Source: Candidatus Peribacteria bacterium
GTDB lineage: Bacteria; Patescibacteriota; Gracilibacteria; BD1-5; UBA6164
Direction: 5' to 3'
NCBI GenBank assembly: GCA_023898505.1
Contig: CP060226.1
Location: forward strand, 159,420 to 191,419
DNA length: 32,000 nt
The notes below the pieces were generated by a model, which saw only the letters and a list, made by a program, of their open reading frames with translations, had not been told where the DNA came from and ran no database searches. Numbering within the stretch: position 1 is the stretch's first letter; every line of letters begins with the position of its first letter. Below are positions 1-32,000 of this stretch, one piece after another. The translations under genes were made by a program, and so were the position numbers.

Positions 1-132
1 AGATATTGTGAAGTATGTGATGTACTTCCAGTTGAGATGTCATCCTGAACTTGATTCAGGATCTCTTCTACAAAGATAGGAAGTCTCTTATATAAGCGTT
101 CTGAACAGCGCGTAGGAAGAGAAATATTTAAG

Positions 133-160
133 TTGAAAATTAAATAAAGTGTGGTATAAT
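133..160 (+). promoter_or_regulatory. sigma70-like promoter (TTGAAA, 16-nt spacer, TGgTATAAT)
   Basis: TTGAAA at 133..138 and extended -10 TGGTATAAT at 152..160 with a 16-nt spacer, about 35 nt upstream of the first possible start of the 194..1720 ORF. Sequence pattern only. Confidence 0.4.
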
Positions 161-193
161 AACTTAAAAGTATTATACCTAAATTATTAAATC

Positions 194-1720
194 GTGTGTA
201 TTCTTCATTTTCAGGATGTTTCTTCTGGCTTAGATAAAGTTCATTTTCTAGATGAGGCTCATGGAAGAAAGTGTAATACAGTTTGCGAACTAACTCAAGG
301 TGATGTAAACGATCTATTAGAGACTCCCTCTCAATTACATACTACCTGAAAAGCAAAATATAGTATTCTAGATCTTATGGGGCTCAAATTTTCTCATATT
401 GAGGCATTAGTAACTTTCATCCAACAAAATTTCAAAATAGATGCAAATAGTCCTGAAGGGATGTTACAATTAAATCGTGTATATGATGAGGTGTGTAAGA
501 TATATCAAACAAGATATCTACGTGTACTACCAGATTCTTTAAAACCAAATAACTGAAAGCCGTATTTTAGAGATATTAAGGCAATATTTTCATATCTTAG
601 TGGAACTGGTCTTTGAAATATAGGTATCATGAAGTGTGAACTTGCAAAATTATTTTTTGCTGTAGGGACGAGTTTACATGATCTAAAGATTACATGATTA
701 CATGAAAATCATTCAGATATTATTACCCAAATAAGAAAAGGAGTACAAATTGATACAATAGATTGACAACCGGATGTATTAGAAGGAGTATACACTTTTC
801 AGAGATGATGAGAAAGACAAACATGACATACTGCTTTATTTACCCTTTTTTGACGCCCTAAAAGTCATGCATCAGTTGTAGGAAAAGAAGTAGGAAATGC
901 TTCGTATTGTAGTTTAGATGACTTCAAAGACTTGCATGGAATTACCTTTGAAATACAAGAGGGTGATAAACAGGGGCTTATATATTTACTACAAAATTAT
1001 TATCAGAGATGACTATTTATAGAGTGAGAGGTTGAAATTGAAAATAAAGAATTATTAAGTGAAGATGATGTAACCGCAACCCAGAATCTTGATGGAGAAT
1101 TTAAACATATACTGTTGGCGGCTATTGCAAAATCTAAAAGAAAGACTGAAGAGAAACGAGAAAGAAAATGATCATCTCATAGATATGAAGATATTAAACT
1201 AAAGGGAAAAATAAAAGTAAAAAATCCTCTAGGAGAACATAAGGCAGATATTATAACTGGTTTAGAAATAAAATTTACACTAGAAGGAAATCAAAATGAA
1301 TATGGACTTGCTTTTCATCCCATAGTCGATTATAAAAAAAGGTTTAGAGAGTTAACTCGTCTTTCTTGAAGGATTCGTAGAAAAGACATATTAAATTTTG
1401 TAAATGAGTTTTTTGAGACTCTTGATGAAAACCTTAACTATAAGCGTAAAGATAGAAGTGAATATCTAGAGGAATTATTCTTAGATCTTAAAGAAAAAGG
1501 ATGTTTACCTCGAGAAATGGTTCTAGACCCACTTGATTCACAATTCGAGAAAAAATTGGCGATATGATTATTTAAGCATTTTGAAAGTGAGCTTATTCCT
1601 GTAAAAAGGAGTAAAAAGACGAAAAATGTTTTTTATGTACATCCTGATTATGAGGTACTTGCTGAGGCTGGTATTATGAGTCCGTTGTATCATGTACAAT
1701 TACCACCGTGAAATTACTAA
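194..1720 (+). CDS. hypothetical protein, UGA-rich; possible RelA/SpoT-like nucleotidyltransferase core
   Basis: The frame is open from TAA 188..190 to TAA 1718..1720 only if about 15 in-frame TGA are sense codons. The standard-code track shows no ORF here. Start is uncertain (GTG 194; first in-frame ATG at 377). The central region (RPKSHASVVGKEV..DLHGITFEIQ, GSSHRYEDIKL, GLEIKFTLEG..HPIVDYKK) loosely follows the RelA/SpoT motif order. Confidence 0.55.
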
Positions 1721-1793
1721 TAAAATAGAAGATACAAAATAATCATAATCACTGGAATAAAAATCAAAGCATACACCAGTCTCTCGTCCATAC

Positions 1794-3245
1794 TTATCTT
1801 TTAGATATAAACTTACCTCTGAGCACATAACGATCTAGTTCAGTGATTTGTACATGGACGGCATCCCCTTCTTGTAGATCTTCTGGTGCTTCAAAGAATA
1901 CTTCTTTAAAATTACGAGTTCTTCCATAAAAGCTTTCATCTTTTTTCCCAGAAATAAGAACCTCCTCTTCCCTTCCGATCATCATCTGATTACGTTTCGT
2001 AATATTTTCAAGTAGGGTGTCGTTGAGAATATGCCAGCGCTCAGCCTTGACGCTATCAGGGATATCATCAGGGTACATCTTTTCAGCCAGTGTTCCTTTG
2101 CGGACACTATAGCGGGCATTGAAAGCAAAATCAAACTCACACTCACGAAATGCGCGTAGGGTATCTTGAAACATCGCTTCTGTTTCTCCAGAAAAGCCAA
2201 CGATGATATCAGTAGAAATCGAAAACAATGGATCTTTTGAACGAAGATAGTCTACCTGTCTTTTAAAGTCTTCATAGGTATGTTTACGATTCATACGCTT
2301 GAGCATCTCGTTTGACCCCGATTGTAGGGCAAAGTGGAGATAGGGGCAAGTATGTTGGAGATCAAAATGGGCATCCAAGATATCTTGGGTCATATCGTGA
2401 GGATTACTGGAGGTGAAACGAATTCTCTCTATACCATTTATCCCATCTATATCGTTCAAGAGTTTTCGAAATGGCGATTCCCCTATTCATTCGTTCCAAC
2501 TACTTTTTTCAGTATTCCAAAGTTTCTTTTCCACAAACTGTTTTCCGTACGAGTTTACGTTTTGCCCGACAAGGGTGATTTCTTTTATCCCTGATCTTGC
2601 TACCTCCTCAACTTCCCTGATAATCTCATCGTGTGGACGAGAGATTTCTTTTCCACGAGTATAAGGAACGATACAAAAGCTACAGTAGTTATCACACCCT
2701 GTTTGGATGATAATGGGGGCTGAAGCCTTTGATTCTCAGTGTTGCTTGACTTTGAGATAGTCATCAAAGCTATGTTCTTTTCCGATAGAAGTTCCTGTGA
2801 TATGGCTTAAAATAAGAGGAATGTATTTCACCTCTTCTATGCGAAGTACGAAATCAATCAGGGGTGATCTGGGAAAGAGTTTATCATCCGCATTAAAAAT
2901 TCCGTCTTTTGTTTCTAAAAGTTCTATCTTCTTTGCGCGTTTTCTTTCTGTATCTGTAGAAAGATATGATTGATTCATCCCCGTTTTACGAACCATACAT
3001 CCCGTAATCCCGATGACGGGCTTTGGTCTGTTGTTGTACTTTGCTTGGTCTGATACTTCCCTCATAAATCCAAATACTCGGTCTTCCCCCTTTTGACGAA
3101 CAGAACAGGTATTAAATACCACAAGGTCTGCAGTTGAGATATCTTTGGCCTTCATAAGTCCTGATTGCAATAAAATCATATGAATCTTTTCACTATCCGC
3201 CTGATTCATCGCGCACCCAAATGTCTGAATAAAATATGATTTCAT
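1794..3245 (-). CDS. miaB: tRNA methylthiotransferase MiaB (radical SAM)
   Basis: Track fragments 1794..2459 and 2736..3245 share one frame (1452 nt) and are joined through two in-frame TGA. Contains the N-terminal [11 protein letters not shown] motif, the radical-SAM motif GCDNYCSFC in the untracked gap, and a C-terminal TRAM-like domain. Stop is TAA. Confidence 0.85.
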
Positions 3246-3872: not shown

Positions 3873-5240
3873 ATGGATACACATACAGGAACTGAAGTGG
3901 TTATGTCTGTTGTAGAAAATACTGCTATGGACTCTGGAATAGGTTTTTGGGTAAGTATAGTGATATTTGCAATTACCTTCGCTATCATTTTAACAGAAAG
4001 AATTCATAGGTCTGTTATTGGTCTTATCTGAGCCCTTATTATGGTAATTGCGGGGATGTTTTTTGGTTTTTATTCTCCTGAACTTGCAAAAGAAGCACTC
4101 GATTTTAATACTCTGGGATTACTCTTTGGTATGATGATTATTGTGGGTATACTTGAACATACTGGAGCCTTTCAATACCTCGGAATTAAAGTAGCAAAAA
4201 AAACAGGTGGTGACTTATGGAAGCTAACCGTAGCACTCGGGACACTCACAACAGTACTCTCTCTGATATTAGATAATGTTACTACGATTATTCTTATCGT
4301 TCCAATTACACTCATCATCGCGAAGATGCTGAAGCTTAATCCTACTCCGATTCTGATGGCGGAAGCACTGCTTTCAGATACAGGGTGAGTAGCGACACTT
4401 GTCGGGGATCCACCAAATATCATGATTGGTTCTGCTGCTGGTTTCAGTTTTAATGATTTCTTGATTCATTCATTACCGATTGTGTTTGTTGCTTGGATTG
4501 CGACACTGATTACACTAAAAATTGTCTTTAGAAAAGAGTTTCAAGAAGGAACACATCCTGATCATATTGAACAACTGAATCAAATGAATGAAAAGGATGC
4601 CATTACTGATCCAAAAACACTAAAAAAGATACTTATGGTTCTTGGACTGGTTGTGTTGTTATTCTTTGTGCATCATATGATCCATATGGAACCATCTATG
4701 GTAGCTATCATCTGAGCGGCGATTGCTCTTATCCTCGTATCTGCGACAAAAGATCCTCAAAAAATCCTTGAAAAAACCGATCTATCTGTACTTCTTTTCT
4801 TTGGTTCTCTCTTTATTATTGTTGGAGGACTTGAACATGCTGGAGTACTTGAAGAACTTGCACAGCTTATCACTTCTGGAGCCGAAGGAAACATCTTGGT
4901 GACAGCACTAGTTATTCTTTGGGTATCGGCAGTACTTTCTGCACTCGTAGATAATATCCCAATGACAGTGGCTATGCTTCCAATTCTTGCATACCTCCAA
5001 TATGAAGTACAGCTTGAGGGGTATCAGCTCTTATGGTGGGCGCTTGTATTTGGTGTGGGTTTTGGAGGAAATGCTTCTCCAATTGGTTCAACTGCCAATG
5101 TAATTGTAGTGTCAAAATCAGAACAAACCGATACTCCTATTACCTTTATGGGATGGATGAAAAGCTGACTTTCTACGTCAGTAGTATCGCTTCTCGTAGC
5201 ATCGATATGATTGTATATATTGTCACTTTTCTTGGCATAG
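3873..5240 (+). CDS. ArsB/NhaD-superfamily (SLC13/YbiR-like) permease
   Basis: ATG 3873 plus track pieces 4041.., 4422.. and 4896.. share one frame and are joined by in-frame TGA. The motif DTG[TGA]VATLVGDPPNIMIGS matches the family with Gly at the TGA. TGA at 5166 and 5208 read through to TAG 5238..5240, adding a final hydrophobic helix. Confidence 0.8.
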
Positions 5241-5298: not shown

Positions 5299-7434
5299 AT
5301 GGAAGATTTACAGTTCTTGTTTGCTACACTTTCTCTCATTTTCCTCTTATTTATTTCGAGCTTTGTATATATTTTCTCCAAGAAGATAAAGGTTCCGTAT
5401 ACGGTATTACTCGTTGTAGTAGGGCTGCTTCTCATTCCTCTCTCTACGAATCCATTTTTCTCGTTTATCGATGATTTTCGACTCACTCCCGAAGTACTCT
5501 TTTTTGTTTTTCTTCCGGTACTCTTATTTGAATCTTCGTACAACATCAATTATAAGCAGATTATCAAGGAGTGGAAACCGGTAGCTGGTCTTGCTATACT
5601 TGGACTTATTGTTTCTACGATTATTATTTCAGTACTGCTCTATGGTATTTTCTACTTTGCAGATGTCGAAATACCTTTCTTAGTATTATTATTATTTGGT
5701 GCATTAATCTCTGCAACGGATCCAGTGGCAGTACTCGCAATATTCAAAAAAATGTGAGCTCCTTGTCGTTTAGCTCTGATCTTTGAAGGAGAAAGTTTAT
5801 TCAACGATGGTACGGCAGTGGCTCTATTTATGGTAATACTTGGAATCATCCTAGAAGGACATATTTTATGACTAGAAACGGTTTCTCTCGGAGTTCTTTC
5901 TTTTGTTTCGATGGTATTTTGAGGTCTTATATTTTGAGGAATCATGGGAATACTCTTTTCAAAGATTCTTGGGTCTATTCGTTATAACGAAGAAGCGGAA
6001 GTAACGATCACCATGATTTCTGCTCATGCGACATTTTTACTTGCAGAATTGATTACTTACTTCTCTCACTTTACTCCCCTTTCTGGAGTAATTGCAACCG
6101 TGACCTGTAGTATCATCATCGGAAACTATGGGAAGTATAAAATCACTCCTCGTGTAGAACAGCATATGCAAAGATTCTGGGAGTTTTTTGCATTTATTGC
6201 CAATACTGTCGTATTTATATTGATGGGGATCACTCTTTCCTATCTAGAAGTGGATATGATGTACTTTGTACCATTTATCGTAATTTCTATTATTGTGGTA
6301 GCGATTGCAAGAGCTGGAAGTGTCTATGGAGTTGTAGGAATATTAAATAAATTTGCAAAAGGTGATGAGCGCATCCCTATGACTTGGCAACACCTACTTT
6401 CTTGGGGAAGCCTTCGTTGAGCTTTAGCTATTATTATGGTACTCTTGATTCCTGGAAAGGGGGAGCCTGGATATATACACTTATTACACTTTCAGGAACA
6501 GGTAGGGTGGAGCTTTCCTTTTGATGTACAGGAGTTTTTACTTGTTCTTACCATTGGAAGTGTTATGTTTACGTTGTTTATTAAAGCAACAACGATTTCC
6601 TATATTATGCATCGTCTCAAAGTAGATAAGCTTGGAGATCTGGAAGAACTTGAGTACGAGGAGGGAAAGATTCTGTCTAACTTCAAGATCTTGAATAAAC
6701 TTGAGAATTCTTATAAAAAGGCATATCTATCACAAATTGAATATAGTGAACTGTTTCAGAAATATGAAAATAGACTCAAAAACGCTCTTTTTAACATAAA
6801 AGCAATCCTTAAAAATAACGAAGAAAATGAACTTCAATTAATAGCAAAAGCCTTATCTCTCCATGCACTCTGAATAGAAAAACAGTACTTAAAAGACCTC
6901 TTTATGTACAATGAAATTGATGAGAAGAACTTTAAGTATATCTTGAGAAAGATTGAACAACAAATATATAGAATCGAGGAATGAAGAGGGCAAATTCGTT
7001 CTATTAGCTGAGAAACTGAGGATTATGATATTTTTACGAAGTTATTTTTCAGATTTTTTAGAAACTTCGATAATCCTATCAATGAATATATCAGAAATAG
7101 AGCCAAGGCGATTATTACCAGTAAAGTAATTACTGAGCTTCGTATGCTCTCAGAAATTGATTTTGGTTTTGATAAAACTTTTTTTGATGATATCATAGAG
7201 CTCTATGCTCAGTTCAATAAAAGTGCAGAAAAAAAGAAAAATATGATTTCTCTTGAGATTCGTGCAACAATTATGGGGTTGGAGTCTCGTCTTGTAGATA
7301 AGTCATTACTACGCCTTGAAGAAGAAGTTCTAAAGGATCTCTTCCAAAAAGAAATTATCACTCCAAAGCTCTATATCAAGTTTATGGATGAAATCGAAGA
7401 AGAGATGTTTATGGATGTAAAAAGATTATCATAA
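5299..7434 (+). CDS. CPA1-family Na+/H+ antiporter (NhaP-type) with long cytoplasmic C-terminal domain
   Basis: Track pieces 5299.., 5944.., 6436.. and 7144.. share one frame (2136 nt) and are joined by about 8 in-frame TGA with no TAA/TAG. The signature KM[TGA]APCRLALIFEGESLFNDGTAVALF matches LGAPxRL..EGESLxNDG. Confidence 0.85.
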
Positions 7435-7435
7435 T

Positions 7436-7472
7436 AAAAAAGAGTCCCGCATCACCTGTGGGACTCTTTTTT
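7436..7472. terminator. bidirectional rho-independent terminator between convergent genes
   Basis: Stem AGAGTCCC / GGGACTCT flanked by an A run on the left and a T run on the right. The stop of the minus-strand gene (7471..7473) lies in its T run. Confidence 0.7.
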
Positions 7473-7905
7473 ATTGACTTGTTCCAGTTGCACTCGCTTC
7501 TTCTTGTACTTTTTGTACAGCATCAACGACTTGTCAGATAGCGTCTATCGTCTCTCCCGTCTGTTCTATGAGGGCTTTTCCTTCGATATATACATCTCCA
7601 GCTCCAGAAAGTGTTTGTCGTACCTCATCTATCTTTCATTTGGTAATATCAATCCCCTCTTTTGCTTTTTCACTATACTCTACCGCTCCACTATATATAG
7701 TAGTATACGCGTGTTCAAGTTCTTCTTTTGTTGGGATATTGGTTACCGTGTCATCAAATGTAGACTTGAAACTAATAATTCCTTGGCTTAGGTGTGGGAG
7801 TCAGAAAAAATCCTCTACAAGTTGTACCCTCGTAGGAAAGTTATATGCTAAAAGTGTGTATCCGACGATAATGATGATCAGAAGAAAATAGATTTTCTTT
7901 AACAT
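7471..7905 (-). CDS. hypothetical membrane-anchored protein (144 aa)
   Basis: Runs from ATG at 7905 to TAA at 7471, 435 nt, with three in-frame TGA. N-terminal hydrophobic anchor MLKKIYFLLIIIIVGYTLLAY. The plus-strand track ORFs here are antisense and low-complexity. Confidence 0.55.
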
Positions 7906-7955
7906 TGGAAGTAGTGTGTTATGTATGTATCGAAAATAAAAAATTTACAGTAATG

Positions 7956-7973
7956 ATCCCGAGTACTCGGGAT
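7956..7973 (-). terminator. perfect 18-bp palindrome, possible terminator
   Basis: ATCCCGAGTACTCGGGAT lies downstream of the 8008 stop on the minus strand. A T run follows, but about 12 nt away. Confidence 0.4.
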
Positions 7974-8007
7974 GACAAGGAAGATTTCTTTATTTTCTAC
8001 AAAGTAG

Positions 8008-8427
8008 TTATTTATCTCCGAGTAGGTCTTCAACACTACAATGAGTAGGTTTGAGATCTTTACTCAAATCAATGATTTCTTCATCTTTGATAAGACTTTC
8101 CTCAGTGTTTTTTGAAGAAACTGGAGTATGTGAAAGTCTTTTATTTTTGAGAATCACTTCAAGTCATTGACGAAGACCACTGAGGCGTTCTTTTAGTTTT
8201 TCGATACTTTCAGCGTTAATATTCATCATATTGAGATCTATTTGTGCAACCTCAGCTTTTACCATAGAGTGTTTCTCACATTTTGGACACTCGATATCGA
8301 TATTGATATTTGATCCAGCTGCCCCGATAATATCGATAGAAGTATCTTCTACTCCAGATCCACACATGGGACACTTATAACTGCTTACAAGAGATTCAAT
8401 CACTCATTTTAGTCCTTGGTAGTTCAT
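8008..8427 (-). CDS. zinc-ribbon protein (CPxC..CPxC), 139 aa
   Basis: ATG 8427, with TGA at 8404 and 8164 read through to TAA 8008..8010. Carries four Cys in two CPxC pairs (CPMCGSG .. CPKCEKH). Confidence 0.55.
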
Positions 8428-8476
8428 ATTTCGTGTTTAATGAATACAAGTAATCTACGATTATTATATCGTAATA

Positions 8477-9946
8477 TTATATTTGTTTCAAAATATTTTC
8501 GATTCTTTCTATTGACTTTTCTTTCCCGAGGATATAAACAAGTTCAAGAGCCCCAGGAGAAAACTCTTCTCCACTCAGTGCTACACGTACAGGCCAAAGC
8601 ACCTGTCCATTTTTATATCCAGCATTGCTGATACCAGAGATAAAGGCATCTTTTATACTCTCTAAACTTCCTACATCCGTTGTTTCTAAGATACTACGAG
8701 CAAGTTTCAAAGCCTCTTGCACCATGGTCATATCCGTAATCTTCATCTTTTCATGTAAAAAGAGGCTTGTATCTACAGCTCCTACTTCTCCATAGAAAAA
8801 CTTTGTCAGTTCTGGTAAATCGCTAAATTTCTTAATGCGTGTCGTCAATTCTCTGAGAATCTTCATATTATAGGATTCATCATAGGATTGTATCTTCACA
8901 AGAAACTCTGTATTGTAGCGCTCTAAATAGGTTATCCACTTATGATAGAGCATATCAATATCCATAGATTTCAAATAGTGGGCATTGAAAAAATCAAGAC
9001 GATCGACATCAAAAATAGCCCCAGCCTTATGTACGTGCTCCAGATTAAATCTTGCAATCAGTTCCGTGATCGTAAAAAACTCTTCTGTGGTTTTTGGATT
9101 CCACCCCAAAAGGGCAATATAGTTAATGAGTGCCTCAGTTAAATACCCTTTTTCTAAGTATTGTTCTACCGCGACATCTCCTGTTCTTTTTGAAAGTTTT
9201 TTCTTGTCTATCCCAAGAAGGAGGGGGATATGACTAAACGTTGGAGGAGTCCAACCAAAGGCTTCATAGAGGAGGATGTGTTTTGGGGTACTTGGAGTCC
9301 ACTCATCTCCACGAATAACGTGGGTGACATTCATCAAGTGATCATCTACCACATTGGCAAGATGATAGGTAGGAAAACCGTCAGATTTTAAGAGGACTTG
9401 ATCATCGATATCTTTGGTATGCACCGTTACTTTTCCTTTAATCGTATCATGAAATACTACTTCCCTATCTTTTGGTACCTTGAGACGAACCGTATATGGT
9501 ACTCCTGCATCGAGTTGTTCTTGTATTTCTTCAGCTGTCATATAACGACAGTGCCCATCATATTTAGTAGGAAGAGAAAGCTCTTGTTGTTCTTTTCTTA
9601 GCGTATCAAGACGTTCACTACTACAAAAACAATAATAGGCCATATCACTATCGATGAGCTGTTGCACATACTGTGTATAGATATCGAGTCTCTCTGACTG
9701 ATAGTATGGTCCGAGATCTCCCGGGTTATTTGGTCCTTCGTCAGGAATCAGCCCGACAGAGGCGAGTACTTTGAGCATATTTTCTATACTTCCCTCGACA
9801 TAACGAGTACGATCTGTATCCTCTACTCTGAGCATAAACTTACCGTTATGTTGTTTGGCATAAAGATAGTTATATAAAACAGTTCTCAGACTTCCGATAT
9901 GAAGATACCCAGTAGGACTTGGAGCAAAGCGAGTAACAACGGTCAT
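8477..9946 (-). CDS. gltX: glutamyl-tRNA synthetase
   Basis: Intact 489-aa ORF. N-terminus RFAPSPTGYLHIGSLRT (HIGH motif) and a KLSKR (KMSKS-type) motif. No in-frame TGA. Confidence 0.95.
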   Translation of the reverse strand: MTVVTRFAPSPTGYLHIGSLRTVLYNYLYAKQHNGKFMLRVEDTDRTRYVEGSIENMLKVLASVGLIPDEGPNNPGDLGPYYQSERLDIYTQYVQQLIDSDMAYYCFCSSERLDTLRKEQQELSLPTKYDGHCRYMTAEEIQEQLDAGVPYTVRLKVPKDREVVFHDTIKGKVTVHTKDIDDQVLLKSDGFPTYHLANVVDDHLMNVTHVIRGDEWTPSTPKHILLYEAFGWTPPTFSHIPLLLGIDKKKLSKRTGDVAVEQYLEKGYLTEALINYIALLGWNPKTTEEFFTITELIARFNLEHVHKAGAIFDVDRLDFFNAHYLKSMDIDMLYHKWITYLERYNTEFLVKIQSYDESYNMKILRELTTRIKKFSDLPELTKFFYGEVGAVDTSLFLHEKMKITDMTMVQEALKLARSILETTDVGSLESIKDAFISGISNAGYKNGQVLWPVRVALSGEEFSPGALELVYILGKEKSIERIENILKQI

Positions 9947-10142: not shown

Positions 10143-10766
10143 ATGACTGTAGTAGCCCAGAAAAAGAAATCGCTTGATCTTGTGAGTACCCTAATCCCAA
10201 CGGTTATCGATAAAACTCCACAAGGAGAAAGAGCTTATGATATTTACTCTCGTTTACTGGAAGATAGGGTTATATTTTTAGGAGAAGCGATTGATAGTGC
10301 GGTAGCAAATACGGTTATTGCACAGTTGCTGTTTCTTGAAAAACAAGACTCAAAAGCAGGTATTACGATGTATGTAAACTCTCCAGGGGGACACGTGACA
10401 GCAGGTCTTGCCATCTATGATACGATGCAGTATGTGAGCTGTCCAGTAACAACGGTTTCTATCGGATTATCCGCCTCTATGGGTTCTATTATCCTAGCAG
10501 GAGGAGAAAAAGGAAAACGCTACGCACTTCCTCATAGTGAAATCATGATTCATCAACCACTTGGTGGAGCCGAAGGACAAGCAACCGATATCAAAATTGC
10601 CGCAGAGCATATCATCCGTACAGGAGCTAGGCTCTATAAAATACTTGCAAAGCATACCGGTAAATCTGTAGAACAGGTAGAAAAAGACTGTGATAGAGAT
10701 AACTTTATGACCGCCGAGGAGGCCCTTGCATACGGTTTGATTGATAAAATTATTAAAAATAAATAA
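10143..10766 (+). CDS. clpP: ATP-dependent Clp protease proteolytic subunit
   Basis: Intact 207-aa ORF with a catalytic triad context ([21 protein letters not shown]). No in-frame TGA. Confidence 0.95.
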
Positions 10767-10792
10767 AAGAGCGGAATATCCGCTCTTTTATT
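10762..10792. repeat. 31-nt direct repeat copy 1; also a bidirectional terminator hairpin
   Basis: AATAAAAGAGCGGAATATCCGCTCTTTTATT is identical to 16179..16209. Stem AAAAGAGCGG / CCGCTCTTTT. It overlaps the clpP stop (10764..10766) and the DUF262-HNH stop (10788..10790). Confidence 0.85.
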
Positions 10793-20323: not shown

Positions 20324-20440
20324 GAAAATATCCTATGAAATAACGAACCTATTGTAAGTAATTCTCTTAAAAAACAAGTTAATCTTGAAAAAAGACAATT
20401 TCAAGGTATAAGCCTACAAGTATATTTTTTCTTTCTTTCT

Positions 20441-21205: not shown

Positions 21206-22201
21206 ATGTTCCAACCACTTCCTCCTCTCTTTCTCGAACGTCTGAAAAAGATCTATTCAGATGATGAACTTCAAATTATCGAATCTGGATATGCGACTCC
21301 AAAGAGAAATCCAGTTTTTCGTATCCACACAACGCAGCAAGAAAATATAGAATATACTCTTGCAGAGTTAAAAGAGAAAGAATTAAACATCAAACCGCTT
21401 TCATTTCTTAATCAGGCATATATCCTCGAAAATGGAACCGAAAAAGATCTTTGGGACCTTCAGTGCTATACGAACGGATGGATTTATCTCCAAGGAATTA
21501 CGAGCCAGATACCTGTAAATCTCCTGAAGAATTATTTAGAGACAGAAAATCTTTCAAAAGATAATTTGAAGATTATTGATTTAGCCGCAGCTCCAGGGGG
21601 AAAAACCTCACAGCTGGCGACACTCGGAACAGAAAATCACATCATTGCGTCCGAGCTTTCGACGATTCGCGCAGAAAAACTGAGATACAATCTCAAGAAA
21701 CTCTGAGTTGAAGATATCGAAATAGTTACCGGAGATGCTCGTCAGAGTCTTACTCATCTCCCAGATGACTCTATCGATATCCTTCTTTTTGATGCCCCCT
21801 GTAGCGGTGAAGGGATTATCAACTATACTCGAGAGAAAAGTTATGATGGTTGGGATATCCGCCACATCAAGAAAAACTATCTCCTTCAGCGTGATATCCT
21901 CAGAAATAACTTGAGGCTCTTAAAACCAGGAGGTATCCTCCTCTACTCTACCTGTACACTCGCTCCCGAAGAAAACGAAGGCATTCTCCACTTTTTACTC
22001 TGCAACTATCCAGAGTTACAGATGATAGATATTTCCTCATATTCACGTCTCCTAGAAGGAGAGGGGTTAGGAGTGAGGTCAAAACCATGAGTCACACAGT
22101 TTTGAGATACTGTTTATAAAAAAGAAGTATCCAAAGGTATGAGGATACTTCCAAGTAGTCAAAATGAAGGATTTTTTATTGGGATGTTTAGGAGGGATTA
22201 G
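21206..22201 (+). CDS. NOL1/NOP2/Sun-family rRNA (cytosine-C5) methyltransferase
   Basis: DLAAAPGGKTSQL (SAM motif I), FDAPCSGEG and YSTCTLAPEENE. Three in-frame TGA. TAG stop at 22199..22201. Confidence 0.8.
22048..22080. repeat. GC-rich palindromic element copy A, inside the rRNA methyltransferase CDS
   Basis: TCTCCT-AGA-AGGAGA hairpin followed by GGGGTTAGGAGTGAGGTC. 24 of 26 nt match 23653..23678 in the same plus-strand orientation. Confidence 0.6.
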
Positions 22202-23178
22202 TTATTTACTATCATTGCTAACCTCCTGTCTTGTGCAGTATTTGAAGAACAATGTTTTCATAAATATAATCTTGCCTCCGCTCTTGTAAATTTTAAAACT
22301 TGTCTTAAGTTTTTATAAGATGGGTGACTTTCTCAAATCATTTCAAACCCATTATCCTTATAATACGTTCCTATTTTCTTTAATATACTTTGAGCATGGG
22401 TATACAATCTAAAAGATGGCCACTTATTATTTGGATTTGTCGTATCTACTGGAGAATGGTTCGTATATCTCTTAAATACTCATTCTAACTTAAATACATC
22501 TCTGATTAGGGTTCTCAAATCTAAATTTCATTTTCAAGGGTTCCCATTTGGTTTATAATATTTTTCTTTTTTTAATTTTGGATATTGAATAAAAAAGTTA
22601 GCAAATAAGCTATCAAAGTATTCAACAGGGAGTTCAAAATCTCGACCAGCCATTGGTCACATATAAAAACTTGCGCTTGGTTTTGTTCATAGTACCTTTC
22701 ATGTTTCATTCAAAATAGGTAAATCTTCGAAGGTAATTCAAAGATTTCATAATTCTCTCATGATATTTGTAATGATCCCATTTGCTACTCATTTATATCA
22801 AGCATGAAATAATCCTATGGTATTACCATCTTGAGTTGAGAATGCAATATTAGCACAATCTGCTACTCATAATATAAGTGATACCTTTGTTTTTACTTCA
22901 GATATGGGAGTTCCGTTTAAGCCAGTAATAATTATACCATCAGTTCAAGGATTCAATAATGTGATATCATCCATATTCTGTATCTCCGATGCGTTTATGA
23001 CTTGAATATTTGGAGTAAATTGTGAACCATCAATTGCAATAATCTTTCTTTTACTATCTCTAAGTTGTAAGGCTTGTAAAATACGATAAGTTGTTTCTCA
23101 GATAGAAAAAGAACAGGGAAATACATCTCATACTACCTTTACTACTGCAGATCATAGAGAACGCTTTATCTCGTTCAT
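22198..23178 (-). CDS. YfiH/PgeF (DUF152, Cu-oxidase_4) family protein with C-terminal extension
   Basis: No ORF appears in the standard-code track. Coordinate-by-coordinate translation gives 981 nt from ATG 23178 to TAA 22198 with 17 in-frame TGA. Contains GVADCANIAF (ADC), GLFHA[TGA]YK[TGA]VANGI (HAGWRG-like) and GPMAGRDFELPVEY. Confidence 0.6.
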
Positions 23179-23237: not shown

Positions 23238-24344
23238 CTAATTACTAAACTTAAAGAGCATCACATCTCCATCTTGCACGATATATTCCTTTCCTTCGAG
23301 GCGTACTTTCCCGACTTCACGAGCTTTTGACCAACCTCCAGCAGTAACGAGGTCTTCCCACTGTACCACATCTGCCTTGATAAATCCCTTCTCAAAATCA
23401 GTATGTATCACTCCAGCAGCAACAGGAGCCGTACTTCCCTGTTTTATAGTCCAGGCTCTCACTTCTTTTTCTCCTGCGGTAAAATAATACTGTAATCCAA
23501 GCGCATCATAACTGGCTTTTATAAGGTTATCAAGCCCTGTAGTAATAAGTCCCATATCTTCTAAAAACTCTTTTCTTTCTTCTGGAGTCATCTCGATCAT
23601 ATCGGCCTCAAGTTTTGCGCAAATAGGTACAACGCGTATTCCCCTCGCCTCCGAAGGAGCGGGGTTAGGGGTGAGGTCTAATAATTTTATGAGTTCATCT
23701 TCGTGCATATCCATCATATCTTCACTGACATTACAGGCGTAGACAAAACGTTTATTTGTGAGAAGATGAAGATCCTGCATATGTTCTTGTTCATCTTCAG
23801 TAAGTCCAAGCGTAGAAACAAGTTTTCACTCATTGAGTCCTTGAAATACCTTTTCATAGGTTTTTTGTGCTTCAGCACACTGTTTATCTGATTTTGCTTT
23901 TTTTGCATTACTGATCATACGTTTTTCGAGAGTATCGACGTCTGCCAAGATGAGTTCTGAGTTAATCACTTCGATATCGGTTTTTGGATTTACTTCGCCA
24001 TGCACATGGGTGATATCTCCATCTTCAAAGAGACGAACAACTTGGAGGATAGCATCAGCTTCACGGATATTTGCTAAAAACTTATTTCCAAGTCCTTCCC
24101 CCTGGCTCGCACCTTTTACTATCCCCGCAATATCGATAAATTCACAGCTCGCAGGAATCACTTTTTGCCCATTTACGGCAGCACGGATCTTCTCAAGTCG
24201 AGCATCGTTGACGTTTACAATTCCGACATTGGGTTCTATGGTACAAAAGGGGAAGTTTTGTGCATCAGCACTATAGTTACGAGTCAGAGCATTAAAGAGT
24301 GTTGATTTCCCAACATTTGGCAGTCCAACGATTCCGATTTTCAT
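23238..24344 (-). CDS. ychF: ribosome-binding ATPase YchF (Obg-like)
   Basis: [21 protein letters not shown] start at ATG 24344; the track start at 24410 is upstream and unlikely. One in-frame TGA at 23826. C-terminal TGS-like [25 protein letters not shown] stop. Confidence 0.92.
23641..23678. repeat. GC-rich palindromic element copy B, inside the ychF CDS
   Basis: CCCCTCGCCTCC-GAA-GGAGCGGGG hairpin followed by TTAGGGGTGAGGTC. Translated on the minus strand it gives [13 protein letters not shown] within a variable loop of YchF. Confidence 0.6.
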
Positions 24345-24434: not shown

Positions 24435-25331
24435 TTATATTACTTTTCTTGGATTAATAGTTTCTCTATAATTCATTGATACTCCGTGAACTCAAATCTT
24501 AATATTTCGATTTTCTGTGTCAGCATCTGGGTTCATGGAATGAACTTCCCCGGTACTTCATATTCAGAGATTATATACTAGTCCATGGGAATATCTCTCA
24601 TGTATGTTGGTAGGAGAGAATCGTGTATGTGATACTTGTCTTCCCTCCTTTGATAATCCATTGGGGATAATAAGTAAGCTTTCTTCTCATTTATTTGGAT
24701 AAATGTGGCTTATATCTCTTGCATGGGTGAGTATAAATCTTTTTGTAAATCTTTCTCTTACTTCGATTAATGCAGTTCTTTCCTTCTCAGGAAGTCATCT
24801 ATGGACAAAACATATATTGAGCATATTTGTCCAAAATCATAGTGATTGTTCTGAGGGAGCCTCTCATCATAATTCAAGAACTGTAAATATCATCTGTTTT
24901 ACTTCTCTAAATGCATCTGGGTATCTTTCTTCAAAATGGCTTTCAGTAATGTATTCTTTACATGCCTGATCTGAAATGGGAGTGTCAACACAGATGGTTG
25001 GAATATTACTATAATTATCAATAGGTGAATATAATCATGTGAGTACTTGATATGCTGATTCAGGTCTATCTGGAGAGTCTATGTGTATGCCAAGATTTTT
25101 TAGTCGAGTAGTAGAGTTGAAAACATAACTACAAACTGCTTCTATAATTCTTCTTGTTTTTTCGTTAATGTATTTAGATATAAATTTTACTCCATGTAAA
25201 TTTCATTCTTTAATTGCTTGTTCTAAGTCTAATAAATTTCCCCATTCAATAAAGCTAATGATATCATCAACTTCAAATTGAGGTATCCTCGTCTCAGAAT
25301 GTTGAGAAAAAAGACTTTCTACAACCGACAT
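24435..25331 (-). CDS. hypothetical protein (298 aa), UGA-rich
   Basis: 897 nt from ATG 25331 to TAA 24435 with about 10 in-frame TGA. It is invisible in the standard-code track, where the only ORF (24703..24969, plus strand) is antisense. No recognisable motif. Confidence 0.55.
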
Positions 25332-25403: not shown

Positions 25404-28124
25404 TTAAGTTGATAACCATTCTAACTTCTCTTCCAACTTCTTCAGCTTCTCCCCTGCTTGAGATTTCTTTTCCATCTCAGCACGCACGAGGTTTTGTGGT
25501 GCACGCTTTACAAAACTTTCATTGAGGAGCTTTTTATCCAGGATAGCGATATACTCCTTGGTATCGGTGATTTGTTCCTTGAGTCTTTCTTTTTCTTTTT
25601 CTACGTCCAGAGCATTTGCTGTATCGATATACACTTCTACTCCTGCTTTTACAACTCCATACGCAAAATCTCCCTGTAATGGTTTATTATCAATGAGCTC
25701 ATAACTATCAGCTTTTACGATTCCAGCGATCAGTGCTAGCACCTCCTCTAGCATCTCTTTATTCTTTGGAGATGCGTAAATCTGAAGTCCCACTGTTTTG
25801 CTTGGAGGAATATTGTTTTCTGCCCTCAGATTACGGATCGTACGAATCGTATCAATAATCACTTGCTTCCCCTTTTCTACTTCTTCATCTCGAGGGAAAA
25901 GCACTCTCGCATACTCTTGTTCGATCAAATCTCCAGTAAATCCAAGGCGAGTATAAATCTCAGCGGTTACAAATGGGATATACGGATGCCAGAGTTTTAA
26001 GAGCTTATTCATTGTGTAGAGCATTACCTGTTCTCCATACTTTGAAGCCTCTTTTGTGAGTTTAAACTCTTCGATGTAGTAATCACAAAATTCATTTTTC
26101 GTAAATGCTTGAAGCTCAATTCCTGCCTCGGAAAAGTTATACTCTTCCATGGCATCTGTTACCATATCTGAAAGATAACGGATACGAGAAAGAATCCACT
26201 TTTCATGATACATGAGTTTATCATAATTCTTCAATAAGTCCTTTTCAATCGTGCTAATATCATCGCTCCTTCCATTAGTAGTAAGGGAAGGTTGGGATGG
26301 GTTATTACTCGTTAAATTCGTAAAAACAAAACGTGAGGCATTCCACAGCTTATTGATAAACAATTTGTTATTTACCACATTTTCCTCATCAAATTTCAGA
26401 TCATTTCCGGGAGTGTTTCCTACAGAAAGTGTAAGTCTCAAAGCATCGGTTCCGTGAGCTTCGATCATATCGATCGGATCCACTCCGTTTCAAGTAGATT
26501 TACTCATCTTTCTTCCGAGTTTATCACGTACCAGTCCATGGAGATACACCTGTTGAAATGGAGTTTGTCCCGTAAATTCATACCCAAAAAGTAGCATACG
26601 AATCACCCAGAAGAAAATGATATCGTGTCCGGTTTCAAGTACTTGTGCTGGATAAAACTGTTCAAACATCTCAGATTGTTTTTCTGCCCCGATATCATAA
26701 TCAAGGATAACAAATGGCCAAAGTGCTGATGAAAACCAGGTGTCAAGCGCATCTGGATCTCTCGTAAGGGTAACAGTATCGGTTTTAAGTTTCTTTTTTG
26801 CTTGTTCTTGAGCCTCTTCTTCGGTTGTCGCACAGTAGATATTATTATCTTCATCATACCATACGGGAATCTGATGTCCCCAGATAAGCTGACGAGAAAT
26901 ACACCAATCTCTCAAGTTAAAAATCCAGTCTTCAAACGTCTTACTATAGCGCTTTGGAATAATCTCAAACTCTTTTGCTTTATATCCCTTGATGACTTTT
27001 TTTACAATAGGTTCTATCTTTACAAACCACTGCGTAGAAATAATTGTCTCGATTTTTGCATGACTTCTTTCTCCATATCCGACACGAGATGTGTGCGGTT
27101 CTATCTTGATAAGATTTCCCTTTGCTTTGAGAAGCTCTACGATATTTTCTCTTGCAGTCATAAAATCCTGTCCGGCAAATATCCCTGCTACACTCGTCAT
27201 CCTTCCATCCTTTCCGAGGACCACTTTATCCATTGGAAGATCGTGACGTTTTGCTACTTCGAAATCATTTGGATCATGGGCTGGAGTGATTTTTACTGCT
27301 CCGGTACCAAACTCCATATCTACCATCTCGTCGGCAATAATCGGGATTTCTTTGTTTACAATTGGGAGGATAAGTTTCTTTCCTGCTTTGAGAAGTTTTT
27401 TATAGCGCTTATCTTTTGGGTGAACGGCAACCGCCACATCCCCAAGCATCGTCTCTGGTCTCGTTGTCGCTACCACGATTTCATTGTCTGAACCCGATAC
27501 AAAATACGTAATATGGTACAAGTGTCCTGGTTCATCACGATACACTACTTCTTGATCGGATACTACGGTATTTAATACGGGATCATAGTTTACCATGTAC
27601 TCTCCACGGTAAATGAGTCCTTTGTTGTATAAGTCTACAAAGGCTTTTGATACTTGGTCATTCAATGCCCCTTCAAAAGTAAAGCGTTCTCTTGACCAGT
27701 CACAACTTGTTCCCATTCTACGAAATTGCTGCTGGATAATTCCTCCATACAAATTATTCCAATCCCAACACTCTTTGAGGAAATCTTCACGGCTCATCGT
27801 ATGTTTTGATTTTCACTCTTTTGCGAGTTTTTCTTCTACTTTTACTTGGGTAGAAATACCAGCATGATCGGTACCAGGAATCATAATAGTCCTATCCCCC
27901 TTCATACGGTGATAGCGAGTCATGATGTCTTCAAGGGTCAGCATTACACTGTGCCCGATATGAAGTTTTGAAGTTACATTTGGAGGAGGCATTGGGATGT
28001 AGTAGGTATTTCCCGTAGTACTCTCTTTTGGTTTAAATTTTCAGTTTTTTTCCCAAGTAGTATAGAGTTTCATTTCAAAGTCCGAGGGATTGTATTTTTT
28101 TGGAAATTCGTTAGTCATAGTCAT
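25404..28124 (-). CDS. valS: valyl-tRNA synthetase
   Basis: 2721 nt from ATG 28124. Contains PPPNVTSKLHIGH (HIGH), DWCISRQLIWGHQIP and KMSKST[TGA]NG (26490..26492). Three in-frame TGA join the track pieces. C-terminal coiled coil. Confidence 0.95.
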
Positions 28125-28303: not shown

Positions 28304-29221
28304 CTAATTTCTTACACAAGAACTAAAAATAATATGAGTTCAAAGGTTGAAATCTAAAAGATTTGAAAATGTATATCAACTTGGGCAAGTAACATGTACC
28401 GCCATACCATTACAGCTTGCCTTCTCAATCCATCAAACCCCTTCTTGATACATACTCCCTCCGCAAAGCGTGCCTGTTGTAATTCACTCTCACCAACTCG
28501 CTAATCAGTTTGCATCTGAAGTTAGTACTTTCTTTACCCCTTGAGTTCCATCAGAAATCTTTATACTTCCATTAATATCTAACTTTGCTGCAGGAGAAGT
28601 AGTCCCAATTCCGACATTTCCATTCTCTCAGACATGAAATAATACATCAGTATTATTGAGGTTTGTTTTATTGTGTGAGATTTGAAATACCTCTCATATT
28701 CCTCCATCTTCACTATCTATGTTTATTGAAAGACTATGAGGAATATTGATAATACCGTTGGTTGTACCAGAAGTGCCCAGCTGAAGAGAGTAATCAACGT
28801 GAAGTCGAGCATTTGGACTAGAAGTTCCAATCCCAACATTTCCATCTCCATCAATAAGTAGATTGCCATTGAGTTGTAAATCTTTATAGGTACCAGCATC
28901 TCTATCATATGCTAAGATTTGTCCATTATCCCAAGTGGTATGATATCCTACCTCAACTGATTTTCATGTAGCTGGCCATGTTAAATTTGTAGATCGTATC
29001 ATACCATCTACATGAAGTTTGGTCTGTGGGGAAGTCGTCCCAATCCCAACATTACTCCCACTACTATAGACATTTCCTACTTTATCTACGAGTTCGTTCC
29101 ACTTGGTGTAATCAAGCGTATCTCCATCGCTCGCCGTGAGCCCAGACCAAGCAAAGAGGACTCAGTAGCCAAGTGTTACAAAAAGAAGCCCTGTAACAAT
29201 TCAAAGAAGATAGTGTTTCAT
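28304..29221 (-). CDS. membrane-anchored surface protein with three tail-fibre-like GNVGIGT(T/S)SP..(K/R)LxV repeats
   Basis: 918 nt from ATG 29221 to TAG 28304. The frame was verified at four points, with about 13 in-frame TGA. N-terminal hydrophobic segment. Repeats are SNVGIGTTSPQTKLHVDG, GNVGIGTSSPNARLHVD and GNVGIGTTSPAAKLDING. C-terminal VLTSDANGLASW and a Cys-containing tail. Confidence 0.7.
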
Positions 29222-29684: not shown

Positions 29685-31016
29685 TTAAAAATCTGCCTGG
29701 ATTTTATGTTCTATCTCTATAAATTTCTGATTGTTTTTATTAAACATAAGCTCTATTGAACCGATAGGACCATTTCTATTTTTTCTAACAAATATATCTG
29801 TCACTCCTTTTTTTTCGGTAAATTCATCATAATACTCTTCTCTATACATCATCATCACGATATCTGCATCTTGTTCGATAGACCCTGATTCTCTCAGATC
29901 TGACATCACTGGACGCTTATCTGGACGAGATTCTACCGCTCTCGAAAGCTGGGAAAGGGCAATAATTGGCACATTGAGCTCACGAGCGAGTGATTTAATC
30001 CCACGAGAAATCTCAGATACTTCTTGAACACGATTGAGAGAGTTTCCATTGGTCATCAGTTGAAGATAGTCAATCACTATCAAATCAAGTCCACTTTCCA
30101 TCTTGAGACGACGACATTTTGATTTTAAATCGATCAAGTTTCCCCCAGCGCTATCATCGATATAGATATTGGCAGCACTGAGCTTTTCCATCGCTTCACC
30201 GATCTTGGCAAATTCACTATCCTCAAGTTCTCATTTTGAGAGCTTCCAAGAATCAATCCCCATAGCTGAAGCTATCATTCTATCTGTCAGTTGTTCTTTA
30301 CTCATCTCTAGACTAAAAATCGCAACATTTTTCCCTTTAAATCCTATGTTTTGTGCGATATTGAGAGAAAAAGCGGTCTTTCACATACTTGGTCTCGCAG
30401 CAAGTACCACCATATCTCCTCCTTTGAGCCCACTGAGTTTATGGTCAAGATCTCTAAATCCTACCTGTAGTCTATGGTCAGTAATAAGGGCGGGGTTTTC
30501 ATGTATCTCTGCAAACTCTTCATAGCGCTTTAAAAGTATCTCATTGATATGTACCAACTTATTTTTGATAAATGTTTGTGTTACATTAAAGAGTGATTTC
30601 TCTGATTTTTCCAAAAGTTCATTGATCATCGTATCTTCATCATATCCACAGGCAATAATCTCATTTCCACTACGGATAAGACGACGAAGTACCGCTTTAT
30701 TCTTTACAATTTGCGCATATTCAAAGATATTGGTAGTCGTAGGTACAATTTCTGTTAATTCCGTAAGATAGGTAATGCCCCCTATCTTTTCTAGAAGCTT
30801 TTTATCGTCGAGACGTTCTTTCAGGGTGATGAGATCGATTGGCTTATTCATCTTGTACAAGCCCATCATCACCTCGTAAATCATACGATGTGATTCATCA
30901 TAAAAATCCTCATGGGTCAGTACATCGGCAATCGTGATAAATCCATCTCTATCAATCAACAGACTTCAAAGAACCGACTGTTCGGCTTCGATACTATGAG
31001 GAGGAACCTTGAGCAT
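29685..31016 (-). CDS. dnaB: replicative DNA helicase DnaB
   Basis: 1332 nt from ATG 31016. N-terminus PPHSIEAEQSVL[TGA]SLLID, Walker A AARPSM[TGA]KTAF (30381..30383), Walker B LIVIDYLQLM. Three in-frame TGA. TAA stop. Confidence 0.93.
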
Positions 31017-31059
31017 ACAAGAAGGGGTTAGGAGTTAGAATTTAGAACTTAAAGTATTT

Positions 31060-31089
31060 AAAAACAAAAGAAAACAAAGTTTAACTTTG
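31060..31089 (-). terminator. possible rho-independent terminator after the TPR gene
   Basis: On the minus strand, stem CAAAGT-TAA-ACTTTG is followed by TTTTCTTTTGTTTTT. Confidence 0.45.
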
Positions 31090-31129
31090 CCTTCTTTGTA
31101 AAATTATTGTGAAGTAAAAATGTTAAAAA

Positions 31130-31936
31130 CTACAAAATTTGTAATCTTTTTTGTATTTCTTTAGTTTTATCAATGACTTCCGTGTTATATGGCTGGAGAT
31201 TTAGTACCATATTATATACCTCAAGTGCTTCATTATTTTTTCAGAAAAACTCTAGACAGGTTCCTTTGATGAGCATCTTTTCTACATCTCTTGGCTTTTC
31301 CTTGAGATATACTTTTGCATACTTCAGAGCTCACTTATAATCTTCTATTTCAAAGTTGAGATTCGTTAGGATGTCCACAATTTCAAAATCAGCTCTATGT
31401 TTTTTATATGCTTTTTTATAGATACTAATCGCTTCAAAATATTTTTTCTGCATGGCTAAAGAAAAACCAAGACGTTTTAAAATCTCAAAATCATCCTCGA
31501 GTACATCGATGAGGTCGCGATATATATACTCTGACTTTATATAGTTTTTTTCTTTTTCATAGATATTTGCTAGTTCTATATTGAGTTCTTTATGAAACTT
31601 ATCGATAGCTAACCCTTCTACGATGAGGGCTTTTGCTGTGTCGATATACCCCTTGCTCGCGTTCATCTTTACTCGCTTGTGTATCTCGATAAGTCGCTTC
31701 AGTTTTTTATCTGTAAGTTTTGTAGCCACTCCTCTATCTTTTTTATAGTTTTCTTCTTTTCCAGAAAGACGAATCTTTTTTTGATGTTCTTTTTCTTCGA
31801 CCACAATTGGGGTTACCATCTTTTTTACATGAAAATAGGCATGATATATTTTTTCTCCAAGATAGTAGAAAATATAGCCAAGAGAAGTAAAAAACAGAAT
31901 AATTTCTAATCGAAAAAACAGGAGTCCTTCCATCAT
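31130..31936 (-). CDS. membrane-anchored TPR-repeat protein
   Basis: Extends track ORF 31331..31936 through two TGA to TAG 31130 (807 nt). N-terminal hydrophobic helix, then repeated A..Y..A helical-pair (TPR-like) periodicity. Confidence 0.65.
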
Positions 31937-32000
31937 ACAAATTTAAAAATACAGGTGTTTCAAGTATATTTCTTTTCTTGAAAAGTAAATAGATTTTACA

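Follow-up and report, generated by a model that had tools for sequence, protein, structure and literature searches.

The window analyzed in this study is a 32,000-nt stretch of contig CP060226.1 from Candidatus Peribacteria bacterium (assembly GCA_023898505.1), and the question addressed is which genetic code its genes use, above all the meaning of the codon UGA (TGA in the DNA). UGA is a sense codon in this window and encodes glycine (Gly), a conclusion that follows from four independent lines of evidence: the identity of the residues aligned to TGA columns, Pfam bit scores, proteome composition, and the exchange of TGA with GGN codons among relatives. Overall, the window is best explained (probability approximately 0.96) as part of the chromosome of an uncultured Candidatus Gracilibacteria bacterium (BD1-5 lineage, Patescibacteria) from activated sludge or wastewater, in which UGA encodes Gly, UAA and UAG are the sole stop codons, and UGG encodes tryptophan (Trp), as in genetic code table 25. 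An initial annotation of the window had assigned exactly that table; its assignment of UGA to Gly stood, while the table is probably incomplete for this organism, as CGG probably encodes Trp instead of arginine (Arg).

The window has a GC content of 35.7%. Reading frames were compared under the standard bacterial stops (code 11) and with TAA and TAG as the only stops. With a greedy gene model, code 11 gave 44 open reading frames (ORFs) with a coding density of 62.4% and a median length of 116 amino acids (aa), compared to 30 ORFs, 92.4%, and 327 aa when TGA was treated as sense. The ORFs bounded by TAA and TAG alone are long and non-overlapping, and they tile the window from end to end. The accepted set consisted of 27 genes and 9,572 codons, in which TAA and TAG are absent from the reading frame and TGA occurs 120 times, spread over 22 genes; in the other two frames, each of these triplets is frequent, with similar counts. 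The genes end in TAA (20) or TAG (7). An ORF on the plus strand at 7568-7891 was dropped from the set as low-complexity, and a public gene call places a minus-strand gene with three TGA codons there (7471-7905); adding this gene brings the TGA-containing genes to 23 of 28, matching the initial count of 23 of about 28. Gly content, which is low at 5.39%, reaches a normal 6.64% if TGA is counted as Gly.

To avoid circularity, only proteins of certain sequence (solved structures and Escherichia coli K-12 proteins) were used as references for the column test. The E. coli comparison covered twelve regions containing orthologues of 13 window genes, with the aligned residue tabulated for each codon. 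A tally of the consensus residue at UGA columns had been proposed alongside the initial annotation, and it is dominated by Gly: among 30 TGA columns, 15 face Gly, 5 alanine (Ala), 2 serine (Ser), 2 glutamate, and 1 Trp, with no column aligned to cysteine (Cys) or selenocysteine (Sec). The sole Trp-facing column belongs to the CPA1 antiporter, where it falls in a membrane segment that is poorly conserved. In the control comparisons, GGN codons face Gly in 61% of cases and TGG codons face Trp in 49% and Gly in 2%, while every non-Gly codon faces Gly in at most 13%. Log2 likelihoods, calculated with substitution frequencies from the same E. coli alignments, place Gly ahead of Ser, the next best amino acid, by 26.4 bits and ahead of Trp by 62.7 bits, and if TGA faced Gly only as often as Trp codons do, 15 or more Gly among 30 columns would have a probability of 5e-18. 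Fifty-nine of the 61 sense codons face their standard amino acid most often, the exceptions being GTC (7 isoleucine, 6 leucine, 6 valine) and CGG, with CGA showing a tie between Arg and glutamine.

The initial annotation had argued that UGA occupies Gly positions required by protein families, citing five sites, all of which carry in-frame TGA on the strand given: 17281-17286 (ParA-like ATPase), 30381-30383 (DnaB), 26490-26492 (valyl-tRNA synthetase, ValRS), and 18150-18152 (IspA-type polyprenyl synthase) on the minus strand, and 5755-5757 (CPA1 antiporter) on the plus strand. At these motifs, and at that of the PgeF-like protein, the TGA codons face Gly in structures or in E. coli. The deviant Walker A motif of the ParA-like protein, NHK-TGA-TGA-VGKTT, aligns to two Gly in three of three structures (NKGGVGKTT in PDB 3pg5 and Soj), and all three TGA columns of DnaB (Walker A G-K-T, EAEQxVLG, and one more) are Gly in three structures and in E. 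coli DnaB. Thermus thermophilus ValRS (1gax) has Gly at two of three columns, namely KMSKS-K-G-N and one further position, and E. coli ValS has Gly at all three. In farnesyl diphosphate synthase structures, Gly is found both at G-G-K-R and in the GM-x-G-G-Q region. Three of six TGA columns are Gly in E. coli IspA, G-G-K-R among them, as are three of the five aligned CPA1 columns in E. coli CvrA, including 5755-5757. The PgeF-like HA-TGA-YK-TGA pairs with HAGWRG of E. coli YfiH, with both TGA codons at Gly; a sequence search with X in place of the 17 TGA codons of the PgeF-like protein yielded no PDB match. The YchF protein and its E. coli counterpart share 52% identity over an alignment that includes the single TGA, which faces Ala.

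Profile scores agree with the column test. When Gly, Trp, or Ser was placed at every TGA and 11 Pfam families were scored (six of them also with Ser), Gly scored at least as high as Trp in 11 of 11 families, with best-family differences of 0 to 22.6 bits and a sum of approximately 130 bits. The order Gly, Ser, Trp was obtained in all six families scored with Ser, and Gly also scored above a neutral X.

The relatives of this organism use TGA in the same way. A scan with GltX, which is free of TGA, across one genome per GTDB species returned 80 loci, the best matches being Candidatus Gracilibacteria metagenome-assembled genomes (MAGs) at 60-69% identity, some labelled Peribacteria or Patescibacteria, together with Gracilibacteria HOT-871, whose genome is complete. 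The organism thus belongs with Gracilibacteria, which narrows the initial placement among Gracilibacteria/Absconditabacteria-like candidate phyla radiation (CPR) bacteria. No genome of the same species was found in the GTDB-representative collection, where the best GltX identity was 69%. In 50 of the 80 loci, TGA lies in frame within homologues of the window genes, and of the 2,753 TGA columns in these 50 loci, 1,982 face GGN in the window, 183 face TGA, and one faces TGG; conversely, no window TGA is paired with a TGG in the relatives. Against standard-code references, the relatives' TGA codons align to Gly in 66% of 6,388 cells, similar to their GGN codons (58-75%), and TGG aligns to Trp in 76-80% of the comparisons with relatives.

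The genes of the window outside the variable island described below are as follows, with bit scores for TGA read as the amino acid named.

377-1720, plus strand: hypothetical protein of 447 aa, 14 TGA codons, continuous only with TGA as sense; the same 447-aa call is found in public assembly L014.

1794-3245, minus strand: MiaB-like radical-SAM methylthiotransferase, 2 TGA codons, both spanned by Pfam UPF0004, Radical_SAM, and TRAM.

3873-5240, plus strand: CitMHS/ArsB-type permease, 5 TGA codons, true stop at 5240 and not at 5168; CitMHS 293.9 bits with Gly, 284.8 with Trp; ArsB match to residue 449, beyond the last two TGA codons; relatives have GGN or TGA at three of the five TGA columns.

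5299-7434, plus strand: CPA1 Na+/H+ exchanger, 8 TGA codons, including 5755-5757; Na_H_Exchanger 181.5 bits with Gly, 172.8 with Ser, 166.6 with Trp.

8008-8427, minus strand: Zn-ribbon protein, 2 TGA codons, true stop at 8008; 46 related loci have a homologue, and 23 of these align across the TGA at 8164.

8477-9946, minus strand: GltX, no TGA; Pfam tRNA-synt_1c; used for taxonomy.

10143-10766, plus strand: ClpP, no TGA; Pfam CLP_protease; exact protein present in activated-sludge Logan contigs.

16234-17319, minus strand: ParA-like ATPase, 5 TGA codons, including both Gly of the deviant Walker A motif (17281-17286); AAA_31 126.6 bits with Gly, 114.6 with Ser, 110.3 with Trp.

17397-18296, minus strand: IspA-type polyprenyl synthase, 6 TGA codons, including 18150-18152; polyprenyl_synt 172.3 bits with Gly, 160.5 with Trp; relatives have TGA or GGN at four TGA columns.

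18411-19088, minus strand: UppS, 1 TGA, two codons ahead of the true stop.

19319-20323, minus strand: SecF, 1 TGA; CGG codon at 19841-19843.

20306-21184, plus strand: DedA/VTT protein, 6 TGA codons; CGG codon at 20996-20998; VTT_dom 64.3 bits with Gly, 47.4 with Trp.

21206-22201, plus strand: RsmB/F-type rRNA methyltransferase, 3 TGA codons; Methyltr_RsmB-F 128.2 bits with Gly, 124.1 with Trp; relatives have TGA or GGN at three of three columns.

22198-23178, minus strand: PgeF/YfiH-like protein, 17 TGA codons, or 61% of its Gly codons; Cu-oxidase_4 47.1 bits with Gly, 24.5 with Trp.

23238-24344, minus strand: YchF GTPase, 1 TGA, at which relatives have TGA (two) or GGN (one).

24435-25331, minus strand: hypothetical protein, 10 TGA codons, continuous only with TGA as sense.

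25404-28124, minus strand: ValRS, 3 TGA codons, including KMSKS-T-TGA-N (26490-26492); tRNA-synt_1 435.1 bits with Gly, 423.8 with Trp.

28304-29221, minus strand: repeat protein of 305 aa, 11 TGA codons, continuous only with TGA as sense; the motif GNVGIGT(T/S)SP...(K/R)L(H/D)(V/I)(D/N) occurs three times, and an N-terminal segment is hydrophobic.

29685-31016, minus strand: DnaB helicase, 3 TGA codons, including Walker A (30381-30383); DnaB_C 348.4 bits with Gly, 338.0 with Trp.

31130-31936, minus strand: TPR protein with TPR Pfam matches, 2 TGA codons, true stop at 31130; two relatives align across both TGA codons, one column being TGA in both.

The two hypothetical proteins and the 305-aa repeat protein had no Pfam match. 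TGA makes up 19% of the Gly codons overall, and its share is uneven among genes, ranging from 0% to 61% (chi-square p = 2e-10). It is lowest (0-7%) in GltX, ClpP, YchF, ValRS, SecF, and UppS, which are the most conserved and GC-richer genes, and highest (40-61%) in the two hypothetical genes and the PgeF-like gene, which are AT-rich and lineage-specific, so that the share tracks low gene GC; in the relatives, TGA makes up roughly half of the Gly codons. One possible cause of this gene-to-gene variation is that conserved genes are under selection to avoid a codon that is costly or prone to error.

The best-surviving alternative, itself very unlikely, is that UGA has a dual, context-dependent meaning, encoding Gly internally and stopping translation at some gene ends. 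Several TGA codons do lie near C-termini (UppS, permease, methylase, and TPR genes), and low-level alternative decoding of UGA, represented by single peptides, has been reported in BD1-5 proteomics (PMC4032931). However, TAA or TAG follows soon after the last conserved residue in every gene. The stops that had been moved beyond an apparent TGA stop in the initial annotation (permease, 5168 to 5240; methylase, 15044 to 14984; Zn-ribbon, 8164 to 8008; TPR, 31331 to 31130; UppS, 18417 to 18411) agree with the ORF tables, and Pfam domains or alignments of relatives cross the TGA concerned. The EcoRI_methylase profile is matched over 1-345 of 345 positions and the ArsB profile to position 421 of 423 only when the TGA codons are read through, both extending beyond the last TGA, and relatives align across the late TGA codons of the Zn-ribbon and TPR genes. 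At the C-terminal TGA of UppS, 16 of 16 relatives have TGA (11) or GGN (5); the local alignment to E. coli UppS stops one residue before this TGA (KRNF/ERRF).

The assignment of UGA to Trp, as in table 4, is less likely still. UGA=Trp is known from Mycoplasmatales and several insect endosymbionts, and table 4 of Mycoplasma/Spiroplasma and several endosymbionts resembles the present case in that UGA is sense, the genome is AT-rich and reduced, and its use as sense was presumably made possible by loss of release factor 2 (RF2); in table 4, however, UGA is read as Trp by tRNA-Trp(UCA), whereas in the window it is read as Gly and the decoder would be a derivative of tRNA-Gly. In favor of Trp are the clear use of TGA as sense in a window of low GC (36%) and the single Trp-facing column in 30 noted above for CPA1. 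Against it, the likelihood of Trp lies 62.7 bits below that of Gly, the Pfam scores are approximately 130 bits lower in total, and Trp content would reach 2.25% (from 0.99%). Furthermore, conserved Trp positions are already filled by TGG, and TGA/TGG pairings with relatives number 0 and 1, compared to 1,982 with GGN. The exclusion of Trp and the retention of TGG for Trp, both proposed in the initial annotation, are thus borne out.

An equally slight probability attaches to the contig being a phage, or another mobile element, in which a stop codon has been recoded, as opposed to a cellular chromosome. Stop-codon recoding occurs in some phages, and the window contains a ParA-like gene and a 5.4-kb variable island with KilA-N, GmrSD/HNH, and methylase genes. 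However, housekeeping genes dominate (ValRS, GltX, DnaB, ClpP, SecF, UppS, IspA, YchF, MiaB, RsmB-like), and Pfam detected no phage structural genes. The flanks, reached through TGA-free genes, contain dnaA, adk, a gene with an SLT domain, and a class A RNase P RNA; in L015, dnaA (275-1687) and the RNase P RNA (4345-4722, 160.6 bits) lie 2-6 kb to the left of the window. The combination of dnaA and RNase P RNA with the genes for ValRS, GltX, DnaB, ClpP, SecF, UppS, IspA, YchF, and MiaB identifies the contig as a cellular chromosome and not a phage. The gene neighbourhood is also common to dozens of Gracilibacteria MAGs and complete chromosomes, and sequencing runs from activated sludge and wastewater contain the window DNA, with identical sequence in independent assemblies from several samples.

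The variable island lies between clpP and the parA-like gene and was characterized by Pfam matches and assembly depth.

10763-16208: strain-variable defence island of five genes.

First gene: GmrSD_N and HNH nuclease, 4 TGA codons.

Second gene: KilA-N protein, 5 TGA codons.

Third gene: helix-turn-helix (HTH) protein, no TGA.

Fourth gene, 13218-14979, minus strand: AAA_15/OLD-like ATPase, frameshifted, 9 TGA codons.

Fifth gene: EcoRI-type adenine methylase, 3 TGA codons, true stop at 14984; EcoRI_methylase 429.2 bits with Gly, 420.0 with Trp; the end-to-end match requires all three TGA codons to be read through.

The island is a single unitig of 5,446 bp that has the depth of its flanks in runs X1 and X3 and is nearly absent in run X2, where other sequence is joined at the same borders. 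The ATPase gene is split over two frames with a break at 14699, and in a contig from run X4 an additional 14 bases (TAAGTCTCTTTGTC) follow 14699 and give back a single ORF of 591 aa; the allele in the window is therefore a deletion pseudogene. Elsewhere, near 8 kb (window positions approximately 7400-8500), GC skew flips sign and gene orientation changes from mostly plus to mostly minus, with convergent genes; this switch may be terminus-like or a mere effect of transcription direction, and its position is odd with dnaA approximately 13 kb away.

The least probable explanation is the standard code, with the TGA codons as real stops, pseudogene lesions, sequencing errors, or Sec sites: the island ATPase gene is truly broken in this strain, but its break is a 14-bp deletion with no relation to TGA, and the standard code is at odds with 120 in-frame TGA against zero TAA or TAG, with the truncation that the essential ValRS, DnaB, SecF, and UppS would suffer, with identical sequence in independent assemblies, with Pfam domains that cross TGA codons, and with columns that are Gly and never Cys or Sec. 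Sec sites are few, depend on a selenocysteine insertion sequence (SECIS) element, and face Cys or Sec in alignments; Sec recoding shares with the window the use of in-frame UGA as sense, whereas the window has 120 such sites in 22 genes, aligned to Gly. As the initial annotation predicted, annotation with the standard code fails on this DNA: in public assembly L013 (SRR12358676), standard-code calls yield two CitMHS pieces, two Na_H_Exchanger pieces, and a MiaB split in two, while the same genes on the same DNA are called full-length in L014 (SRR14234112).

Reading UGA as Gly raises the question of its decoding. Based on the literature and on related metagenome contigs, UGA would be decoded by a dedicated tRNA-Gly(UCA) with the acceptor-stem identity set of glycyl-tRNA synthetase; published work on the lineage further suggests that loss of RF2 (prfB) would permit UGA to act as sense, with release factor 1 (RF1) presumably terminating at UAA and UAG. 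In BD1-5 enrichment proteomics, 97 peptides were specific to UGA=Gly, compared to 3 with UGA as Trp (PMC4032931), and all BD1-5 genomes examined lacked prfB and contained prfA (PMC6851277). A tRNA-Gly(UCA) is expected in these genomes, while the few NCBI "Gracilibacteria" that use UGA as a stop possess RF2 but no such tRNA (PMC8629427).

When metagenomes were scanned for sequences that pair a Gly-type acceptor end with a UCA anticodon loop, five tRNA(UCA) genes were recovered. An identical 79-nt tRNA(UCA) occurs on two contigs from different metagenomes and has G1:C72, C2:G71, G3:C70, and U73, the identity set used for calling tRNA-Gly(UCA) (Shulgina & Eddy). On both contigs it adjoins a tRNA-Gly(GCC) at a distance of 5-17 nt (L141, 624-796; L105, 2639-2799), and both contigs are TGA-recoded, with their TGA aligning mainly to Gly. 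Contig L141 encodes Gracilibacteria-like proteins, one of them 58% identical to a protein of a related GltX-neighbourhood locus (L036), the best match of the other contig to the related loci is 28%, and the flanking protein genes are not common to the two. Three further candidates were set aside: those on L133 (296-368) and L169 (1609-1683) have G73, a Trp-like discriminator, and a Trp-like anticodon arm, and the one on L145 lies on a contig without the recoding signature. The L133 and L169 genes are on small AT-rich contigs and have an acceptor start of G1-C2-G3, and their identity may be either Gly or Trp. Variants of the two-contig tRNA(UCA) were present in three of four sludge runs (none in X4), and assignment to the window genome is not possible. 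One variant, on unitigs of 2.7 and 5.0 kb, has a depth of 19-20 in X3 (window 17) and 56 in X1 (window 46), which is compatible with the same genome as the window and only suggestive of it.

Several points weigh against this account of UGA and its decoding in this genome. ARAGORN found no tRNA gene in the window or in 14 kb of its flanks, and no tRNA with anticodon UCA in 60 related loci (approximately 1 Mb of syntenic sequence). The part of the genome reached, approximately 46 kb, is too little to judge the absence of prfB. The X1/X3 depth ratio of the tRNA variant, 2.8 compared to 2.7 for the window, comes from only two runs. Lastly, approximately half of the TGA columns face non-Gly residues in E. 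coli, which is expected at 21-52% identity and is matched by the GGN controls.

Table 25 (the Candidate Division SR1 and Gracilibacteria code) was reportedly described by Campbell in 2013, Rinke in 2013, and Hanke in 2014. The window shares with it the assignments UGA=Gly and UGG=Trp, the stops UAA and UAG, low GC, and a place within Gracilibacteria, but differs over CGG, which is Arg in table 25 and appears to behave as Trp in the window contig and some of its relatives. Only three CGG codons occur among the 9,572 codons of the window, in SecF (19841-19843), DedA (20996-20998), and the island HTH gene (12882-12884, minus strand), the last of which has no alignable homologue. The two alignable codons face phenylalanine (SecF) and Trp (DedA) in E. 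coli. Codon 231 of DedA is CGG in the window and in nine relatives, although the flanking synonymous sites are scrambled, and it is TGG in HOT-871, E. coli DedA, and a Saccharibacteria homologue. At codon 161 of SecF, where E. coli has TTC, relatives have TGG (three), TTT (six), or TAC, TAT, or CAT.

CGG tallies in the relatives were reference-anchored and passed through coding-score filters, which removed conserved antisense frames, the source of leucine ("L") calls. Loci L055 and L067 have CGG at a GltX position that is Trp in six of eight standard-code references and TGG in 47 relatives, and L023 has CGG at the invariant Trp of the UppS motif DGNRR-W-A. L035 and L045, both of which share the DedA CGG of the window, have CGG at further TGG columns. 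In contrast to this Trp-type group, six loci (L020, L022, L026, L028, L029, and L032) have CGG at conserved Arg positions, and after antisense filtering no relative genome mixes the two types. AGG showed no deviation from its standard meaning.

According to Shulgina & Eddy, CGA and CGG both encode Trp in Absconditabacteria, and CGG is predicted to encode Trp in some Gracilibacteria and Arg in others. The Absconditabacteria (SR1) code (Shulgina & Eddy 2021) is similar to the window in UGA=Gly, and window CGG is very rare (3 per 10,000) and located at Trp or aromatic columns; it differs in that CGA encodes Trp, whereas window CGA behaves as Arg and the nearest genomes are Gracilibacteria. The Absconditabacteria state of CGA was accordingly rejected: window CGA, which is used 32 times per 10,000 codons, faces Arg in 65 and lysine (Lys) in 59 of 158 relative cells, with Trp outside the top five, and it faces Arg, glutamine, Ala, or Lys in E. 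coli, never Trp.

The case for CGG=Trp is tempered by three observations: the window contains only two informative CGG codons, replacing Arg with Trp at CGG raises the Pfam scores little (2.7 bits for VTT_dom, to 67.0, and 1.0 bits, or 3.7 in total), and close relatives are divided between Trp-type and Arg-type CGG. Judged from these alignments, the organism seems somewhat more at home in the CGG=Trp group than outside it, and table 25 probably does not describe the whole of its code. The evidence tilts slightly toward a lineage that reads CGG as Trp while CGA stays Arg, and which would thus split the CGA/CGG pair. Shulgina & Eddy considered such a split hard in CPR bacteria because CGA and CGG are decoded by tRNA(UCG) and tRNA(CCG), without an inosine tRNA.

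These findings have consequences for annotation as well as for the evolution of the code. Pipelines that apply table 11 will yield fragmented proteins from this contig, and table 4 will place Trp in Walker A, KMSKS, and other Gly motifs. The principle is not new, as UGA=Gly has been known since 2013; the window adds a wastewater lineage of Gracilibacteria for which there is no same-species reference genome. If the CGA/CGG split is true, it requires that this lineage has dispensed with tRNA(UCG), narrowed the wobble of that tRNA, or become tolerant of ambiguous decoding. In addition, the patchwork of Trp-type and Arg-type CGG at 60-69% GltX identity would, if true, mean repeated gain or reversion over short evolutionary distances, and a clade containing both types of CGG would be a natural system in which to study the gain and reversion of a sense-codon reassignment.

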